Source of the DNA: Escherichia coli
GTDB taxonomy: Bacteria; Pseudomonadota; Gammaproteobacteria; Enterobacterales; Enterobacteriaceae
Assembly: GCF_024223415.1 (NCBI RefSeq)
Contig: NZ_CP100500.1
Length of the DNA stretch: 64,000 nt
Reading direction: 5' to 3' (one strand)
Shown here: positions 36-47,181 of the stretch, piece by piece
Numbering within the stretch: position 1 is the first letter of the stretch
Layout of the letters: each line of letters starts with the position of its first letter
The notes under the pieces: generated by a model
Told to the model about the DNA's origin: nothing
The model's database searches: none
The model's input: the letters and a program-made list of their open reading frames with translations, nothing else
Position numbers and translations under genes: made by a program

Positions 36-245
36 TCAGATAGCTGTTACGTTAACAGCTGCCGGACCTTTCTGGCCGTCCTGAATTTCGAACTCAACGT
101 TCTGACCTTCAGCCAGAGTTTTGAAGCCATTACCCTGGATAGCGGAGAAGTGTACGAACACGTCTTTGCTGCCATCAGCAGGAGTAATGAAGCCAAAACC
201 TTTAGACTCGTTGAACCACTTAACCTGACCTTTAATCTTTGCCAT
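36..245 (-). CDS. cspC: cold-shock-domain protein CspC
   Basis: 69-aa [36 protein letters not shown]..., CspA-family with RNP motifs; position next to yobF as in K-12. Confidence 0.93.
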
Positions 246-257
246 TTGAAAAATTCC

Positions 258-401
258 TTAGATTGTTTTCTTCGCCCGCAGGCATAACATAGATAAAACT
301 GACACATTACTGCATGAGGCACCAATATAAGGCTCGGCAGAGAAGCGGTATTCAACGTCAACGTGTTTACTCAGGACTTCTTTACTGAAAATGCCACACA
401 T
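258..401 (-). CDS. yobF: small protein YobF (47 aa)
   Basis: Manual translation of minus strand gives [47 protein letters not shown]; below the 60-aa cutoff of the ORF track. Confidence 0.85.
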
Positions 402-1072
402 AAACAGAACTGTACCTCGTTTAACCCGAAATCTGTTATCACATACAACGTTAATTATGGCAAGCCATTTTTAAACATGTCTCGATCAGACGCACAAATC
501 TCGATACGTCTTCCACTTTTTTTGCACACTTATGCAACGGAATACGCGCCGATATATCATTGTGCTTAACCTTGCCAGTTCCGGCAGATACTTAAACTGG
601 CGTAGTTTCTAACATAGTTCAATAAGTTCAGTTGTTCCAGGCCAGTGGGAGAAGTTATTACATAGTGCGTGCAATATCACATTTTCTGCTATGCAATGAA
701 TAAAAAGTTATATCACTTTTTCTCATAAAACAGTCAGTTAACGGCTATCAATTACCCTAAAGAGAAGTCAATCCCCAAAGGGATTGTAAATTTAAAATAA
801 GAAAAATTGATGAGTGAGCAAAAAAATCAAGAGAGAAACGTTTCGCTAATAAATAATACCACGCTTAATCACAAATCCGATGTAAACATCCTAATAAATT
901 ATAATGAGGAAAATATCTTTTTCTGATATCCCGTTACGCAAATAAATAATATGATAATTATTTGAAGTCAGACCAGAGTTTTAATTTGAAGCAGTTGCAC
1001 CATGACAGTGCGTATAATCAGGATGAATTGAGTAACCCTTCAACGACGGGGTTACTCAAGATTGAGGAAGGA

Positions 1073-1976: not shown

Positions 1977-2119
1977 GGGCAATAAATAACCAGATTCTCA
2001 CTCCTGAGTAAAATACTCTTATAGCAAGCGCGTTTAATATAACGCCACCTTCAACTTTATTTTTCTCATGCTAAATAAAGAACCTGTCTGTTTGATATTC
2101 CGACAGGTTCTTACTCTCA

Positions 2120-2911
2120 TCAGAACGGATAGTCGTGATAACCCATTTGGGCAGAAATTTTGCGCGCTGCGGTATGCAACATTGCGACATATTCCTGTAA
2201 ACGCTCTTCAGAGAAACGCAACGTCGGGAAGGAGATGCTCAAACCGGCAATGACCACGCCAAAGCGATCAAATACCGGTACCGCAATGCATCGCAGCCCT
2301 TCTTCCTGCTCTTCGTTATCTTCGCCATACCCCTGCTCGCGCACCTGGTCCAGAACGGGTAATAACGCTTCTGTACTGGTGATGGTCCGCTCGGTACTGC
2401 GTTTATACTCCACGCCCTCAAGAATTTGCTTCACTTCATCGCGATCGCGCCATGCCAGCAGTACCTTACCAATCGCGGTGCTGTACAGCGGATTACGACG
2501 CCCAATCCGTGAATACATGCGCAAATTGTACATAGAGTCAATTTTGTGAATGTAAACAATACTGTCTTCGTCCAGTGCGCCGAGGTGGATAGTTTCTTTG
2601 GTCAGGCGGGAGATCTCACGCATCTGGATATCTGCGCTACGAATTAAATCGACGTTTTGTAACGCGCGAGCGCCCAGTTCAAACAATTTCAGGGTCAGGG
2701 AATATTTCTCCGACTCCCCTTCCTGCGCCACATAACCTAAGGTTTTCATGGTCTGTAAAAAGCGATAAACGGTGCTTTTTGACATCATGACGCGCTGCGA
2801 CAGCTCGGTTATCCCTATTTCGCGCTCTTCACCCAGCGCCTGCAAAATGCCAAAAACTTTTAGCACGGAAGATACAGAATCAGGCTGTTTATCCAGATCT
2901 GCGTTAGCCAT
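2120..2911 (-). CDS. kdgR: IclR-family transcriptional repressor KdgR
   Basis: 263-aa ORF with N-terminal HTH and IclR effector domain; synteny. Confidence 0.92.
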   Translation of the reverse strand: MANADLDKQPDSVSSVLKVFGILQALGEEREIGITELSQRVMMSKSTVYRFLQTMKTLGYVAQEGESEKYSLTLKLFELGARALQNVDLIRSADIQMREISRLTKETIHLGALDEDSIVYIHKIDSMYNLRMYSRIGRRNPLYSTAIGKVLLAWRDRDEVKQILEGVEYKRSTERTITSTEALLPVLDQVREQGYGEDNEEQEEGLRCIAVPVFDRFGVVIAGLSISFPTLRFSEERLQEYVAMLHTAARKISAQMGYHDYPF

Positions 2912-10353: not shown

Positions 10354-12955
10354 AGCGCAGATTAAAAATAAACGCCGTATCTCACCTTTCTGGCTGCTGC
10401 CGTTCATCGCGCTAATGATTGCCGGTTGGCTGATTTGGGACAGTTATCAGGACCGGGGTAATACTGTCACCATCGACTTTATGTCGGCGGATGGTATTGT
10501 TCCAGGCCGTACGCCTGTTCGTTATCAGGGCGTTGAAGTCGGAACAGTGCAGGATATCAGCCTCAGCGACGATCTTCGTAAGATTGAAGTCAAGGTCAGC
10601 ATCAAATCCGATATGAAAGATGCGCTGCGCGAAGAGACTCAATTCTGGCTGGTGACGCCAAAGGCCTCATTGGCAGGTGTCTCCGGGCTGGACGCCCTCG
10701 TCGGTGGTAACTATATCGGCATGATGCCAGGTAAAGGTAAAGAGCAGGATCACTTTGTCGCACTCGATACCCAACCGAAGTATCGGCTGGATAACGGCGA
10801 TCTGATGATCCACCTGCAAGCTCCCGATCTCGGTTCGCTGAACAGCGGTTCATTGGTCTATTTCCGCAAGATCCCGGTGGGTAAAGTCTACGACTATGCC
10901 ATCAATCCCAATAAACAAGGCGTGGTGATTGATGTCCTGATCGAGCGGCGTTTTACCGACCTGGTGAAAAAAGGTAGCCGTTTCTGGAATGTTTCTGGCG
11001 TTGATGCCAACGTCAGTATCAGTGGCGCGAAGGTGAAACTGGAAAGTCTGGCGGCACTGGTTAACGGTGCGATTGCCTTCGATTCACCTGAAGAGTCGAA
11101 ACCTGCCGAGGCGGAAGATACCTTTGGTCTGTATGAAGATCTGGCCCACAGCCAGCGTGGCGTAATAATAAAACTGGAACTGCCGAGTGGGGCAGGATTA
11201 ACCGCCGACTCGACGCCGTTAATGTATCAGGGGCTGGAAGTCGGACAGCTGACTAAACTGGATTTAAATCCTGGTGGTAAAGTCACCGGAGAAATGACCG
11301 TTGATCCCAGCGTCGTTACGCTGTTACGGGAAAATACCCGCATCGAATTACGCAACCCGAAATTATCCCTTAGCGATGCCAATCTCAGCGCCCTGCTGAC
11401 CGGAAAAACCTTTGAGTTGGTGCCTGGCGATGGCGAGCCACGCAAAGAGTTCGTTGTTGTGCCAGGCGAAAAAGCACTGCTGCATGAACCTGATGTTCTG
11501 ACACTGACCCTGACAGCACCGGAAAGTTACGGTATTGATGCTGGTCAGCCGCTCATTCTTCACGGCGTGCAGGTAGGCCAGGTTATTGATCGTAAACTCA
11601 CCAGCAAAGGCGTTACCTTTACCGTCGCCATTGAGCCTCAGCATCGCGAACTGGTAAAAGGCGATAGCAAATTTGTCGTCAACAGCCGTGTCGACGTGAA
11701 GGTGGGGCTGGATGGCGTTGAGTTTCTCGGTGCCAGCGCCTCAGAATGGATTAACGGCGGGATACGTATTCTGCCGGGCGATAAAGGCGAGATGAAAGCC
11801 AGCTATCCACTGTATGCCAATCTGGAAAAAGCGCTGGAGAACAGCCTTAGCGATTTACCCACCACAACCGTGAGTTTGAGTGCAGAGACGCTGCCGGATG
11901 TGCAGGCAGGATCGGTAGTGCTGTACCGTAAATTTGAAGTTGGTGAAGTTATTACCGTGCGTCCGCGAGCTAACGCGTTTGATATCGATCTGCATATTAA
12001 GCCGGAGTATCGCAACCTTCTGACCAGCAATAGCGTGTTCTGGGCAGAAGGCGGGGCGAAAGTTCAGCTGAATGGCAGCGGCCTGACCGTACAGGCATCC
12101 CCGCTCTCCAGAGCATTAAAGGGAGCCATTAGCTTCGATAACCTCAGCGGTGCCAGCGCCAGTCAGCGTAAAGGAGACAAACGTATTCTGTATGCTTCCG
12201 AAACAGCAGCCCGTGCGGTTGGCGGGCAGATTACGCTTCACGCTTTCGATGCCGGAAAACTGGCGGTCGGGATGCCAATTCGCTATCTCGGTATTGATAT
12301 CGGGCAAATCCAGACGCTGGATCTGATTACCGCGCGCAATGAAGTACAGGCAAAGGCGGTACTTTACCCGGAATATGTCCAGACCTTCGCCCGCGGCGGT
12401 ACGCGCTTCTCAGTGGTCACACCGCAAATTTCGGCAGCTGGCGTTGAGCATCTTGATACTATCCTCCAGCCGTATATCAACGTCGAACCAGGCCGGGGCA
12501 ATCCTCGCCGCGACTTTGAATTACAAGAGGCCACCATTACTGATTCGCGTTACCTGGATGGCTTAAGCATTATTGTTGAAGCGCCGGAAGCCGGTTCGTT
12601 AGGCATCGGTACGCCTGTGCTGTTCCGTGGTCTGGAAGTCGGTACGGTTACCGGAATGACGCTGGGGACATTGTCAGATCGCGTGATGATTGCGATGCGC
12701 ATCAGTAAACGCTATCAACACCTGGTGCGTAACAATTCCGTCTTCTGGTTGGCATCGGGTTACAGTCTGGACTTTGGTCTGACGGGCGGCGTAGTGAAAA
12801 CCGGCACCTTTAACCAGTTTATCCGTGGCGGCATCGCCTTCGCCACGCCTCCGGGTACGCCACTGGCACCGAAAGCCCAGGAAGGCAAGCACTTCCTGTT
12901 GCAGGAAAGTGAACCGAAAGAGTGGCGTGAATGGGGTACTGCGCTTCCCAAATAA
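10322..12955 (+). CDS. letB: MCE-domain lipid transport protein LetB (YebT)
   Basis: 877-aa product from [10 protein letters not shown], repeated MCE domains; overlaps letA 3' end. Confidence 0.9.
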
Positions 12956-21859: not shown

Positions 21860-22519
21860 TTATTCCGCCAAAGTGCGTTTTTGCTGTTCGAGATCGCGTT
21901 CAATGCCTTCACGAACATCCTGGGGGATTTTCAGCGCGTCACCCAGTGCATTCAGGTAACTGCGTTCCATAAAATGGTCAATATCAATAGCCGCGCAGCT
22001 CAGGAAATAGATTTCCAGCGCCTCTTCTTCATTGCGGACCCCGGTAGCCAGGCGTTGTGGATCCAGCGGTTGTTCGATTGCCTGCTCAATGAGTACCCGC
22101 CCCTGCTCTTCCACGCCGGCTTCACGCAATTGCTGGTCGATTGCCGCACGTTCTTTGGCATCAATATGACCATCACTTTTAGCGGCAAAGACTAGCGCAA
22201 GGATCAAACGTTCCGTACGCTCATCCAGCGGCGTACTTTGCGCGCCAAACTGCGGTTCGTCCTGATGCGCCGCGCGAATTTTATCTTTGTATTTATTCCA
22301 CAGCACCGTACCCGCTACCGCTCCGCCGCCAATCAGCAACGCGTTGGTGCCATATTTCGTAAGAAGTTTACGTGCTGATTTATTTGCGACCAGCAGTCCA
22401 GCCAGTCCACCTAATGCGCCCGGCACTAAAAGTTTGCCCAATCCCTGATCCGCAGACGAGGAGGTAGAAGAACTGCTTTGCCCAAGCAGGGATTGCAGTT
22501 GATTTAACCAGTTAGCCAT
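21860..22519 (-). CDS. yebE: inner membrane protein YebE (DUF533)
   Basis: 219-aa ORF; synteny. Confidence 0.85.
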
Positions 22520-23556: not shown

Positions 23557-23575
23557 TTGCAGCCTCTCATAATAA

Positions 23576-23591
23576 CTGTGATTTTATACAG
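23576..23591. promoter_or_regulatory. LexA box (SOS box) of yebG
   Basis: CTGTGATTTTATACAG, CTGT-N8-ACAG palindrome ~20 bp upstream of yebG start. Confidence 0.75.
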
Positions 23592-23636
23592 TATATTTCT
23601 TTTCGGTTGAGAAATCAACACCAGCAATAAAGACAC

Positions 23637-43636: not shown

Positions 43637-44203
43637 ATGCTTGAACTTAATGCTAAAACCACTGCGCTGGTGGTGATCGATTTACAAGAAGGCATCTTAC
43701 CTTTTGCCGGTGGTCCACATACTGCCGATGAGGTAGTTAATCGCGCCGGGAAGCTGGCGGCGAAATTTCGCGCCAGCGGTCAGCCCGTGTTTCTGGTGCG
43801 AGTTGGCTGGTCTGCCGATTACGCCGAAGCATTAAAACAGCCGGTTGATGCCCCCTCCCCCGCTAAAGTGTTGCCCGAAAACTGGTGGCAACATCCAGCT
43901 GTATTAGGTGCAACTGACAGTGATATCGAAATCATCAAACGTCAGTGGGGTGCGTTTTACGGTACGGATCTGGAGTTGCAATTACGCCGCCGAGGTATCG
44001 ATACAATAGTGTTATGTGGGATCTCGACCAATATCGGTGTTGAATCCACCGCCCGCAATGCCTGGGAACTTGGCTTTAATCTGGTGATTGCCGAAGACGC
44101 CTGTAGTGCCGCCAGCGCCGAGCAACACAATAACAGCATTAATCATATCTACCCGCGCATCGCCCGTGTGCGTAGCGTGGAAGAGATCCTTCACGCGTTA
44201 TGA
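43637..44203 (+). CDS. yecD: isochorismatase-family hydrolase YecD
   Basis: 188-aa product from [17 protein letters not shown]; the ORF track begins at an upstream GTG. Confidence 0.88.
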
Positions 44204-44310
44204 TTTACATCGGTCTACCGCAATGGTCGCATCCTAAATGGGTGCGGTTGGGGATCACCAGCCTTGAAGAGTATGCCCGCCACTTTAACTGCGTGATACG
44301 GGATTTTTAA
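44200..44310 (+). pseudogene. yecE: yecE 5' fragment, disrupted by prophage insertion
   Basis: Reads [32 protein letters not shown], then diverges from K-12 yecE and stops after 5 more codons; AT-rich phage-like DNA follows. Confidence 0.8.
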
Positions 44311-44411
44311 AAATCACTAAAGAACGCCCAAGAGCATGAGTTTTCTTTAGCATAATCAAAGCGTTGAATTTCCATGCCATATGAAAATCGGCAAAGTTCA
44401 TATGTAACAAA

Positions 44412-44471
44412 GTGTCCCAATCATGCCCCAAATTGCCCCACAACAGACATTTTTGCCCCATGCATGCCCCA
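44412..44471. repeat. phased direct repeats of TG(C/T)CCCA near the prophage-host junction
   Basis: Five copies (TGTCCCA, TGCCCCA x4) starting at 44413, 44424, 44434, 44454, 44465, spaced at ~10-bp multiples. Confidence 0.6.
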
Positions 44472-44492
44472 AAAAATCACTTTCCCTCACCC

Positions 44493-44542
44493 TTGACACT
44501 GTTTATCCATACAGTTAAAAATAATACTGTATACAAACACAG
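44493..44542 (+). promoter_or_regulatory. putative SOS-regulated promoter of phage dinI: -35 TTGACA with two LexA-box-like palindromes
   Basis: TTGACA at 44493-44498; CTGTTTATCCATACAG at 44499-44514; CTGTATACAAACACAG at 44527-44542; both fit CTGT-N8-ACAG. Confidence 0.6.
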
Positions 44543-44557
44543 TGTAGAGGGATTTTT

Positions 44558-44806
44558 ATGCGTATTGAAATCTGTATCGCTAAAGAAAAATTCAGCAAAA
44601 TGCCAAAAGGCTCTGTACCTGCTCTACAACAGGAAATGTCTCGCCGTATCAGAAAACAATACGACGATGTGGAGGTTATAGTAAAATCCGCCAGTAATGA
44701 CGGACTGACCATTTTAAGAGCCGTAGATAAAGAAAACGCTCAGAAGTTCATACAGGAAACGCTGCAGGAAGTCTGGGAAACTGCTGATGACTGGTTTTTT
44801 CACTAA
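44558..44806 (+). CDS. DinI-family DNA-damage-inducible protein (prophage-encoded)
   Basis: 82-aa [22 protein letters not shown]...[16 protein letters not shown], resembling DinI incl. C-terminal acidic WExADDWF motif; good SD (AGAGGG). Confidence 0.8.
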
Positions 44807-44873
44807 TCAGGACGTCAAATAAATAACAACTGTAATTATTCTCTCCAAATTAACAATCTCTGTATACATACTC

Positions 44874-44910
44874 AGGCGTGTTCACGCATACAACACGCCT
44901 TTCTGATATT
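44874..44910 (+). terminator. intrinsic terminator downstream of dinI-like gene
   Basis: AGGCGTGTT-cacgcatac-AACACGCCT followed by TTCTGATATTT. Confidence 0.55.
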
Positions 44911-44982
44911 TAATTGTTTACAGAAATATTGCCGAATAAAAATATAAACCATAGTCTTAAAAAAATAATAATTCCACTATAG

Positions 44983-45078
44983 CTATCCCAGAACAACCAG
45001 TACAAATAATAAAAGACATATCACAGCAACACTCCACACTGACAGCGCAAAAATAAATGCCGCCTTTGTTATCTTCAT
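44983..45078 (-). CDS. hypothetical 31-aa hydrophobic peptide (speculative)
   Basis: Manual translation: MKITKAAFIFALSVWSVAVICLLLFVLVVLG; single predicted TM helix; weak SD; lies in an AT-rich spacer. Confidence 0.2.
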   Translation of the reverse strand: MKITKAAFIFALSVWSVAVICLLLFVLVVLG

Positions 45079-45189
45079 ATACAAGCAACCTGTCCTGATA
45101 ATCACCAACTCATGTTTTATTCTTAACCATTCGTCACAAATACAACAAAAAATAACAGCAGCAGCACCGATATCACAATATAAGATACA

Positions 45190-45645
45190 TTATTCAACAC
45201 CTGAATCCCCCGCAGCTTCTCTCCCCTTTATAAAACGCCCCTTCCGGAATCCAGACCGCTGCAGTGCACGACGAAGATGACCGTATACCGTCTTGTCATT
45301 CTGCCCCGTCTCTTCTGTAATCTCCGCAATACTTAAACCTCTGTAATACCGGTTCAGTACCGCTCTGCGCTCTTCCAGCGTCAACACACCTCCGGCCGCT
45401 CTCAGATTCAGCATCGACTTATTCAGAATACAGCAGGCCTCTCCGGTAAAAAGAATACGAACAATATCTGTATACTCATCATCACAGAATACAAAATAAT
45501 ATCTGAATGACCTGCCTGACTGCACCCTTCTTCTGTCTGATATGGCATCTTCTATATATCTGATTCGACTGCTTACGGTTCCAAATATCTCTCGCAGGGC
45601 TTTTTCAAAATAAATATCTCTCGTCGCCAGGATTATATCCAGCAT
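45190..45645 (-). CDS. LuxR/GerE-type HTH transcriptional regulator (prophage accessory)
   Basis: 151-aa ORF; C-terminal LTLEERRAVLNRYYRGLSIAEITEETGQNDKTVYGHLRRALQR fits the GerE/LuxR HTH pattern; Arg codons almost all AGA/AGG/CGA and frequent ATA Ile. Confidence 0.6.
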   Translation of the reverse strand: MLDIILATRDIYFEKALREIFGTVSSRIRYIEDAISDRRRVQSGRSFRYYFVFCDDEYTDIVRILFTGEACCILNKSMLNLRAAGGVLTLEERRAVLNRYYRGLSIAEITEETGQNDKTVYGHLRRALQRSGFRKGRFIKGREAAGDSGVE

Positions 45646-45661
45646 CTCTGTACCTCATTAT

Positions 45662-45682
45662 ATCCCGGGGGACTCCCCCGGG
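45662..45682. other. GC-rich hairpin between eib-like gene and regulator
   Basis: TCCCGGGGG-ACT-CCCCCGGGA, 9-bp perfect stem, no U-tract. Confidence 0.5.
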
Positions 45683-45705
45683 ACAGATATCTAAATCCTG
45701 ACCTG

Positions 45706-46833
45706 TCAGAACTCAAAATTCACACCAGCATTCCACGATGCGGATGACCCACCTGCAGCAACTGCAACTTTTCCTGCCACATTCTCTGTGAAACGGTAGC
45801 CCACGCCCACCGCAATGGCCTGCTCATCACGGTAACCACCAACGGCTGCTGTCGCGTTAAATTTTCCAACACTGTATGGCTGGAAAAGACCGGCCAGTGC
45901 CGCGCTCTGGGCTGCACTCTCCCTTAACTCCTTCCGGTTCTCTTTAATCTGCTCCTGCATATTATTCATTCTCTCTGTCGCCATCTTCTGCCAGGCTTCC
46001 GTCAAATCCAGACGATGACTGTTATTCCTTATCGCTGCTGTATTTGAGGCTATTGCTGCATCCGTCTGCGCCCTGTTCTTCACAAGCACATCGCTGAGAT
46101 GTTCTGCCTGGCTTTTCACCTCGTTACGGACAGTACGCACACTGCTGTCTGTATATGTACGCGTCTCGTCCAGAACATCCGACTTCACCGCATCCGTGTA
46201 TTCCTGCGCAGAAGCCCTGGCAGCTGTAATATTACCGTTAAGTCTGTTTTCTGCCGATTCCACTCGACTCTTAGCATCAGCAACAGCATCACGGTAGACA
46301 GCTCCTATCTCACCGCGCAGGGCATCCCCCGACTCCCGTACAGCATCTGCAATGGCGTTGTCCATCTGTCCTTTTGTGGCCGCATCACTATCCTTAACAC
46401 CATCTGAAACATTTATAATCCGGCGGGTTTCCGGTGCACCATCAACTGAAAATCCATATCCTGAAGGACCGGCCCCTACAGAAAGTACATTGCTTTCTCC
46501 ATTCACCTGAGAGCCATACCCCAGAGCGACACTGTTGTCTGCATTAAAAACAGCTGTATTATTTCCCACAGCCATGGATTTATCCGCATCCCAAATTATT
46601 GCATCGGAACCAACAGCAAAGTTTTTTCCAGTAACACTACCATCACTGTTAAAATTTCCATTTCTGTCAACCACAGTTGCACTTTCAAGTGAATGAGTGC
46701 CATTATCAATCCAGATAATACCCGTCGATGACTCAGTAAGTGTTTTATGAGCCAAAGCCTGAGATGAGAGCAGCAGGGCCACACTCACTGCCAGCGCGCT
46801 TTTCTTTAAAAAAGCATCACGTCTTTTAAGCAT
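45706..46833 (-). CDS. trimeric autotransporter adhesin, Eib-like (E. coli immunoglobulin-binding protein family) candidate
   Basis: 375-aa product from MLKRRDAFLKKSALAVSVALLLSSQALA (signal peptide; SD AGGAG 9 nt upstream); coiled-coil stalk; C-terminal YadA-like anchor ...WNAGVNFEF; Eib genes are known prophage cargo; the ORF track extends 18 codons upstream. Confidence 0.7.
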   Translation of the reverse strand: MLKRRDAFLKKSALAVSVALLLSSQALAHKTLTESSTGIIWIDNGTHSLESATVVDRNGNFNSDGSVTGKNFAVGSDAIIWDADKSMAVGNNTAVFNADNSVALGYGSQVNGESNVLSVGAGPSGYGFSVDGAPETRRIINVSDGVKDSDAATKGQMDNAIADAVRESGDALRGEIGAVYRDAVADAKSRVESAENRLNGNITAARASAQEYTDAVKSDVLDETRTYTDSSVRTVRNEVKSQAEHLSDVLVKNRAQTDAAIASNTAAIRNNSHRLDLTEAWQKMATERMNNMQEQIKENRKELRESAAQSAALAGLFQPYSVGKFNATAAVGGYRDEQAIAVGVGYRFTENVAGKVAVAAGGSSASWNAGVNFEF

Positions 46834-47181
46834 TCTGTTATTCTCCTGTATTATTACTTCACCAGCCAGAACGGTAGTGCGGAGCAAAAATACAGTGATA
46901 AGAATCCTCTTTTATTAATTTAATAATATCAGGAATATTATTGTGTATAATATGCGCCCTCAATTTAAGCAGCAGAAAAGCAATGACGCGAAAATCATTA
47001 AAATACATAAAGATAAAACATCATAACTATAATTATAATAAGCGCGCTTATTTTAGCATCTGAACATTTAAAGTACTGCTATCACAAAACAATAAAAATC
47101 CTGGGTAATATCTCTGATGATTGAATGAGAAATTCACGATGTCTGGTGAGAATTCTGTTCAAAACGAGGAATGCAGACGTA

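Follow-up and report, generated by a model that had tools for sequence, protein, structure and literature searches.

A short gene resembling dinI lies at the edge of a lambdoid prophage of Escherichia coli, behind a promoter that carries two palindromes in tandem. The question raised by this locus is whether both palindromes serve as LexA operators and what kind of unit they control. Within the window, meaning the whole 64,000-nt stretch of DNA that was analysed, an initial annotation made from the letters alone had pointed to a TTGACA hexamer, two palindromes, a Shine-Dalgarno (SD) sequence and an 82-aa open reading frame (ORF), and had described them as a prophage dinI-like gene behind two putative LexA boxes. 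Each of these elements was found in its place when the sequence was read again (Table 1). The locus is very probably a self-contained, monocistronic, SOS-inducible moron with two predicted LexA operators, situated at the att end of a lambdoid prophage in yecE. The gene type and its arrangement are already known, having been annotated or studied in related phages. The additions made here are small: box 1, which is unannotated in public records, reads as a good second operator that is conserved in the lineage, and the CC in its spacer does not appear to weaken it.

Table 1. Features of the dinI-like locus and LexA boxes of the window ranked by heterology index (HI; both strands ranked).
Feature	Position	Strand	Description
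yecE 5' fragment	44200..44295	+	cut by prophage insertion; junction ~44295/44296
dinI cassette homology block (moron)	44492..44835	+	starts at the -35 hexamer, ends ~30 nt 3' of the stop codon
-35 hexamer TTGACA	44493..44498	+	perfect consensus; read from sequence and consensus scan
LexA box 1 (predicted), 20-mer CACTGTTTATCCATACAGTT	44497..44516	+	fills promoter spacer; rebuilt HI 5.67, rank 3 in the window
LexA box 1, 16-mer core CTGTTTATCCATACAG	44499-44514	+	directly 3' of TTGACA
-10 region (candidates)	44516..44522	+	TAAAAA (44516-44521, 17-nt spacer) or AAAAAT (44517-44522, 18-nt spacer)
AT-rich linker TTAAAAATAATA		+	between box 1 core and box 2 core
LexA box 2 (predicted), 20-mer TACTGTATACAAACACAGTG	44525..44544	+	covers predicted transcription start; rebuilt HI 5.11, rank 2 in the window
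LexA box 2, 16-mer core CTGTATACAAACACAG	44527-44542	+	
SD AGAGGG	44546..44551	+	6 nt 5' of ATG; read from sequence
dinI-like CDS	44558..44806	+	82 aa and stop; ATG at 44558
Probable intrinsic terminator	44874..44911	+	9-bp stem AGGCGTGTT/AACACGCCT (44874-44900), then TTCTGATATTT
yebG box			HI 4.24, rank 1 in the window
ruvAB box			HI 6.98, rank 4 in the window

The promoter combines a perfect -35 hexamer with a -10 region that reads as weak and for which both a 17-nt and an 18-nt spacer are possible. The consensus scan chose AAAAAT with the 18-nt spacer (10 of 12 positions match), and the A and T at positions 2 and 6 of this version are kept in all four of the diverged lineages described below, as read from alignments. 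The 17-nt version, TAAAAA, is the one annotated in the VT1-Sakai and mEp460 records. Box 1 shares its first two bases with the end of the -35 hexamer and extends to the -10 region; box 2 begins 3-4 nt past the -10 region and ends 13 nt 5' of the dinI-like ORF. Under either reading, box 1 lies in the spacer, and box 2, following so closely on the -10 region, covers the predicted start. Both boxes overlap a promoter or start that is predicted from consensus only, and their positions correspond to classic sites for blocking RNA polymerase.

By its sequence, the 82-aa ORF is clearly a member of the DinI family, in agreement with the initial annotation. It matches the Pfam DinI profile PF06183 over positions 1-63 of 63 (E=1.8e-19; 70.3 bits, cut-off 24.2) and the E. 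coli DinI structures 1GHH and 7YWA over residues 1-81 (phmmer, E=3.7e-13), and it shares 48% identity with K-12 DinI (BLASTP, E=1e-21) and 44% with the DinI homologue of Gifsy-1. The profile match and the similarity to solved DinI, two of the marks by which family membership was judged, are joined by a third, the residues that contact RecA. In E. coli DinI, a hydrophobic pocket (L13, L21, W71, W77 and F78) receives RecA F203, and an acidic patch (E24, E69 and D76) faces RecA K232, R243 and K245; these RecA elements are also the ones to which LexA, UmuD and lambda CI turn (PMC9926225). The prophage protein has seven of the eight unchanged (L21, E24, E69, W71, D76, W77 and F78), and the eighth, L13, is replaced by methionine (Met15 in the prophage protein). 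Since the contact residues are so largely kept, it is reasonable to infer that the prophage protein would bind the RecA filament groove.

The unit appears to be short. The hairpin 3' of the gene is GC-rich and present in both the MFE and the centroid structures of the folded 3' region, and it probably ends the dinI-like transcript; a terminator scan missed it because its loop is 9 nt. The ORF list of the window contains no plus-strand ORF of at least 30 aa between 44807 and 46098. This gap, together with the terminator-like hairpin, suggests that the dinI-like unit is monocistronic.

The prophage setting, also claimed by the initial annotation, is borne out on both sides of the gene. Upstream lie aspS, yecD and a fragment of yecE that is cut at ~44295; its ORF retains 32 yecE residues and then diverges. 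In a 99.5%-identical RefSeq genome, the yecE stretch is likewise an incomplete CDS without its C-terminus that follows aspS and yecD, and the same junction sequence is found in P-EibC. Downstream, lambdoid tail genes occupy the minus strand, where a sigma-70 region-4-like helix-turn-helix protein, a YadA-type adhesin, tail-fibre genes and a tape-measure-sized ORF are encoded; a minus-strand ORF of 1169 aa has the size of the lambda host-specificity protein J and is named by size only. By the order of the predicted genes, therefore, no prophage gene lies further out than the dinI-like gene, which sits at the tail-fibre/att end of this lambdoid yecE prophage and is transcribed inward. Stx phages are known to insert in yecE. 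Records named PPyecE and Stx2_..._yecE occur among the sequence matches.

In RefSeq, the gene carries the name 'DinI-like family protein'. Its cassette recurs as a unit: a BLAST match in mEp460, cdtI and similar phages runs from about position 193 to 536 of the query. The cassette adjoins the att junction in both the window and VT1-Sakai, but directly follows int in mEp460, where the integrase stop codon abuts the -35 hexamer. Because it is found as a unit in different phage contexts, the cassette behaves as a moron, and it has the promoter and terminator of its own, both predicted, that are looked for in such an element.

The strength of the two boxes as operators was assessed by HI. The bare pattern CTG-N10-CAG is unspecific, with 33 occurrences in the window against 14 expected; because it is so common, 20-mers were scored instead, using the Berg-von Hippel/Lewis formula and a matrix rebuilt from LexA operators of E. 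coli, 26 in all. Their sequences follow the published lists and not the original Lewis 1994 table, so that absolute HI values are approximate, and the rebuilt values run about 1-3 units under the published values for the same operators. Two of the training operators, those of yebG and ruvAB, were found verbatim in the 64-kb window, which confirms the sequences used for these two. Only four places in the window, on both strands, score below an HI of 7, namely the yebG and ruvAB boxes and the two boxes of the dinI-like gene, and the next unrelated site has an HI of 11.1. In 3 Mb of random sequence, matched to the dinucleotide content of the window or to the local AT-rich content, no site reached an HI of 6 or less, and 0-0.04 sites per 64 kb had an HI of 8 or less. 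The observation is real and far beyond chance.

Comparison with the training set leads to the same view of the boxes. The leave-one-out HI of the 26 operators has a median of 6.98 and a range of 1.2-12.4, and both boxes lie in the better half; bootstrapping gave ranges of 4.1-7.8 for box 1 and 3.0-8.4 for box 2. Both are palindromes with an AT-rich centre and an HI below about 12.6, as is looked for in a LexA operator. On the published scale, both probably score about 7-8, which is far under the usual cut-off of 12.6. The initial annotation had proposed scoring the two sites and had set a line at about 15, beyond which its reading would fail; the rebuilt values of 5.67 and 5.11 are far under that line, and its two tandem putative LexA boxes stand. 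Its suspicion that box 1 might be weak, owing to a CC in the spacer, does not hold: the sulA operator, which is strong, has CC at that place, and the 16-mer of box 1 matches it at 14 of 16 positions. The match to the ftsK (dinH) operator is 15 of 16. A third candidate box, CTGTATACATACTCAG at 44860-44875, was treated as a chance occurrence. Its HI of 12.6 is worse than that of all 26 training operators, and it lies 3' of the gene, by the base of the terminator stem, in a region common only to near-identical genomes.

Conservation of the arrangement was followed in relatives from IMG/VR, where 80 of 198 loci encoding a relative were kept, 57 of them with at least 130 nt of upstream sequence. 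Counting the window and P-EibC (L002), these gave 29 distinct upstream regions, of which 28 have a pair of LexA-like boxes placed near -61 and -33 relative to the ATG. Four diverged lineages can be told apart: the window type, the VT1-Sakai type, L021 and the Citrobacter rodentium phage phiNP. In all four, TTGACA runs directly into CTG, both boxes have their CTG/CAG triplets and the linker is AT-rich, so the operators are conserved in orthologous promoters. The -35 hexamer is changed in only two of the 29 upstream regions (TTGATA and TTAATA), and TTGACA is kept in 9 of 10 aligned dual-box sequences, the exception being a Klebsiella phage (TTGACT, shifted). The inner ten bases of each box, by contrast, differ at many positions across the four lineages, with the inner sequences of phiNP also different, and linkers of 10 to 13 nt occur. 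A geometry that is kept while the inner bases and the linker vary is what would be expected from selection on two independent LexA sites, and not from selection for one given sequence or a constant helical phase. A fixed cooperative spacing is unsupported, as the box centres lie 26 to 29 bp apart depending on the lineage. That the boxes mirror each other was likewise set aside as a feature of the family; such symmetry is confined to the window-type sub-lineage, and the phiNP boxes resemble direct repeats.

Multi-operator SOS promoters include those of lexA and recN. The closest annotated counterpart of the window locus is H0001 of VT1-Sakai (Stx1 prophage, AP000400), a homologous cassette of ~72% nucleotide identity that encodes an 82-aa DinI-like product, is likewise att-proximal inside the host junction, and has the same layout of TTGACA, box, AT-rich -10 and box. 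The AP000400 record annotates a 'putative promoter of H0001 and H0002' and a 'putative SOS box' that is the homologue of box 2, and the mEp460 record (NC_019716) annotates a promoter at the -35/-10 of the cassette. VT1-Sakai differs from the window in that its upstream palindrome, CTGGTTATCCATACAG, is unannotated and has an HI of 9.5, in that the prophage is inserted in yehV and not in yecE, and in that a second small gene, H0002 (YkgJ-like), belongs to the predicted operon, whereas the window locus is read as monocistronic.

The Gifsy prophages of Salmonella also bear a DinI homologue behind a LexA box. These dinI homologues were found by experiment in 2011 to be LexA-controlled and mitomycin-inducible; each heads an operon whose second gene is an antirepressor that triggers induction, and removing dinI by non-polar deletion did not change induction significantly (PMC3121763). 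A genome-wide study lists them among the SOS genes with an HI of 3.9-5.3 on its own scale (PMC8072944). Unlike the window gene, Gifsy dinI is located mid-genome after the replication genes, with a single box over the -10, a separate upstream terminator and the antirepressor downstream. An antirepressor operon of the Gifsy type was considered for the window and rejected, the gene having no downstream plus-strand ORF of at least 30 aa and a hairpin at its 3' side.

Among chromosomal genes, E. coli K-12 dinI is of the same family, keeps the RecA-groove contacts, and forms a short monocistronic unit under LexA control that ends in a terminator of its own; it differs in having one operator that overlaps the -10, an imperfect -35 (TTGTCA) and the standing of a core-genome gene and not of phage cargo. 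The chromosomal dinI of Salmonella has two boxes, 19 and 42 nt from the ATG, much like the 13 and 41 nt of the window, but its upstream box is very poor, with an HI of 17.6 on the scale of that paper (PMC8072944), whereas both boxes of the window are good. In Klebsiella pneumoniae, LexA binding at the dinI promoter was detected by ChIP, and the dinI-DinR mRNA is LexA-controlled, with a box over the start and a structured 3' end as found here; the 3' part of the Klebsiella mRNA is, however, processed to an Hfq-dependent sRNA that represses ftsZ (PMC10907235). A DinR-like sRNA was sought in the window and rejected. The 3' UTR sequence TTCTCTCC (44839-44846) is complementary to the ftsZ SD GGAGAGAA through only the 8-mer UUCUCUCC, and the predicted duplex energy with ftsZ -60..+30 does not improve on that of dinucleotide shuffles (fractions 0.125 and 0.55). 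A search of 44200-45300 gave no Rfam match.

What was observed here is the sequence anatomy, the operator quality, the protein family and the conserved architecture, whereas occupancy of the two sites by LexA, the start and end of the transcript, binding to RecA and any benefit to the phage are inferred. A sigma-70 promoter, with its perfect -35 and weak AT-rich -10, would be bracketed by the two LexA operators, and in the undamaged lysogen LexA dimers on both sites would exclude RNA polymerase. Upon DNA damage, RecA-stimulated self-cleavage of LexA would free the promoter, and a short mRNA ending at the hairpin 44874-44900 would be made. Its product, the 82-aa DinI homologue, would bind activated RecA, stabilising the filament, and would compete with other groove binders such as UmuD, LexA and lambda-type CI repressors. 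Possible benefits to the phage are a delayed or damped repressor cleavage, a stabilised RecA filament or limited mutagenesis in a host about to lyse; the link to the timing of prophage induction that the initial annotation drew is speculation. Literature searches gave only general mentions of E. coli prophage dinI-like genes, and no direct results on LexA, SOS response or expression for the att-proximal type with two boxes. A 2022 preprint on the loss of dinI in irradiated O157 was set aside, as it concerns the chromosomal gene.

The two boxes might also, or instead, act at the level of RNA, a role that is unlikely. Box 1 would pair with box 2 in transcripts that read in from outside and so insulate the gene from outside promoters, the hairpin and its U-run terminating the read-in and burying the ribosome-binding site. 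Together with their flanks, the boxes make up an imperfect inverted repeat of 26 nt, and as RNA 44484-44566 folds at -23.4 kcal/mol (z=-4.9; 0 of 200 shuffles as good), with a stem that ends at the GAGGG of the SD and AUUUUUAU directly after. Any two palindromic LexA boxes are, however, partly complementary; moreover, internal loops interrupt the AU-rich stem, the short U-run has only 4-5 U, no terminator was called here by the scan and no compensatory changes were seen. The hairpin recurs in relatives with the same box 2 type (z -1.4 to -3.9, most -2.5 to -3.9), whereas the VT1-Sakai, L021 and phiNP lineages lack the extended pairing (z -1.6 to +0.7). In mEp460, the hairpin comes directly after the integrase stop codon, which is where an int terminator would be, and the position of the box 1-box 2 hairpin resembles that of the lambda tI/sib region beyond attP. 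The Gifsy dinI promoters are also preceded by terminator-like palindromes (PMC3121763).

The gene's own transcript, starting inside box 2, could not form the box 1-box 2 hairpin, while transcripts from the att side could. It is doubtful that the window sub-lineage carries a dual-use element, being LexA-binding DNA and, once transcribed by read-in from host yecD-yecE' in the lysogen or from int in phages such as mEp460, an RNA hairpin of ~20 bp that terminates this read-in and hides the ribosome-binding site. If such an element were real, the RecA modulator would be made only from its own SOS-gated promoter. As the pairing is limited to one box 2 sub-lineage, an RNA role would be a possible add-on and not the defining property of a promoter read here as governed by two LexA operators.

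Whether box 1 contributes at all is a separate matter, and it is rather improbable that box 2 is the only working operator, with box 1 decaying or accessory and the promoter a single-operator SOS promoter like that of chromosomal dinI. The annotators of VT1-Sakai marked only box 2, and in loci of the VT1-Sakai type box 1 scores worse than box 2 (HI 8.7-11 against about 7). A triplet of box 1 is lost in three loci (CAG to CAA in L011 and L013, CTG to CTA in L012), and the Klebsiella phage P12620-1 is without box 1. A single strong box over the -10 is likewise found in Gifsy-1, SEN34, mEp237, PHB10 and the dinI genes of Klebsiella and Aeromonas phages (~35-44% identity), and chromosomal K-12 dinI has the same arrangement, so that one box serves in both the K-12 and the Gifsy-type genes. 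Across relatives, box 1 thus appears less constrained than box 2 and may contribute less. Against its dismissal, the box 1 of the window has an HI on a level with recA-class operators and departs little from the operators of ftsK and sulA. Four diverged lineages whose inner sequences differ also retain box 1 at this place in the spacer, and in the absence of selection that would be difficult to account for.

That the palindromes are operators of a phage repressor or another regulator, and not of LexA, is highly improbable: phage operators are often palindromic and promoter-overlapping, and the immunity region of the prophage lies outside the window, leaving no operators for comparison, but both sites fit the LexA matrix like bona fide operators, CTGT/ACAG ends included, the same sites accompany dinI in phages that differ in immunity type, integration site and host, and dinI genes are LexA targets wherever tested.

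With two predicted LexA operators as the preferred reading, the value of the locus lies mainly in annotation, where a second operator is added to a promoter publicly described with one. The gene would be one more predicted prophage LexA target, and the presence of its transcripts after DNA damage need not, therefore, signal prophage induction. If the predicted binding to the RecA groove holds, extra copies could shift SOS dynamics, mutagenesis and the induction thresholds of Stx phages in pathogenic strains; this is a known question that the window locus alone makes no more testable. Such cassettes are very common: sequence similar to a 601-bp query (44300-44900) was detected by megablast in 1507 of 5426 complete E. 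coli genomes, with up to four copies per genome.

The two predicted LexA boxes of the dinI-like prophage gene, box 1 and box 2, form an imperfect inverted repeat together with their flanks. As RNA, this repeat is predicted to fold at -23.4 kcal/mol (z = -4.9), and the fold hides the Shine-Dalgarno sequence, with AUUUUUAU coming next. The RNA hairpin is kept only in the sub-lineage that has the same type of box 2. If formed in transcripts, such a hairpin could serve as a read-in terminator or insulator.

Features in and around the dinI cassette, elsewhere in the window and in two dual-box relatives (HI, heterology index from a matrix rebuilt from 26 E. coli LexA operators; absolute values approximate)
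Feature	Position	Strand	Remark
26-nt imperfect inverted repeat	44490-44551	+	both boxes plus their flanks
TGYCCCA, five copies	44413-44471 (starts 44413, 44424, 44434, 44454, 44465)	+	all on the same strand
8-mer TTCTCTCC	44839-44846	+	3' UTR of dinI-like gene
Third CTG-N10-CAG palindrome CTGTATACATACTCAG	44860-44875	+	past dinI-like stop codon
31-aa hydrophobic ORF MKITKAAFIFALSVWSVAVICLLLFVLVVLG	44983-45078	-	unannotated
Prophage cargo, two genes	45190-46887	-	adjoins dinI cassette
Weak LexA-like site AACTGGATTTAAATCCTGGT	11256-11275		HI 11.1
Weak LexA-like site AACTGGTTAAATCAACTGCA	22494-22513		HI 11.7
hicA-hicB toxin-antitoxin pair	phiNP 241-937		after dinI
YkgJ-like gene	VT1-Sakai 2006-2206		after dinI

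The TGYCCCA cluster is located between the dinI -35 hexamer and the yecE junction, and packs 5 of the window's 21 matches into 59 bp. Similar repeats likewise lie upstream of dinI in P-EibC and VT1-Sakai. They likely represent arm-type integrase-binding sites in the att arm.

The window also contains the known chromosomal SOS boxes of yebG (TACTGTATAAAATCACAGTT, 23574-23593) and ruvAB (CGCTGGATATCTATCCAGCA, 38831-38850), and the LexA scan used these as its internal positive controls. The two weak sites score at about the level expected by chance. The third palindrome, which overlaps the foot of the putative terminator hairpin, is probably a chance occurrence, as its rebuilt HI (12.6) is poorer than that of all 26 reference operators. 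The nearby 8-mer is complementary to GGAGAGAA, the Shine-Dalgarno sequence of E. coli ftsZ, a match that recalls DinR, the Klebsiella sRNA derived from dinI; the predicted duplex with ftsZ shows no gain over shuffled controls.

In the Citrobacter phage phiNP and VT1-Sakai, the dual-box dinI promoter may drive additional cargo; thus, other genes of these phages could be SOS-controlled. The cargo adjoining the dinI cassette here encodes a 393-aa YadA-type trimeric autotransporter and a 151-aa protein with a helix-turn-helix like that of sigma-70 region 4, a layout similar to the P-Eib prophage loci of ECOR-9. Compared to the immunoglobulin-binding EibC/EibD, the autotransporter has only ~37% identity, over two thirds of its length. 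Directly downstream of the helix-turn-helix gene, and on the same strand, is the 31-aa ORF, the product of which may be a small membrane peptide.
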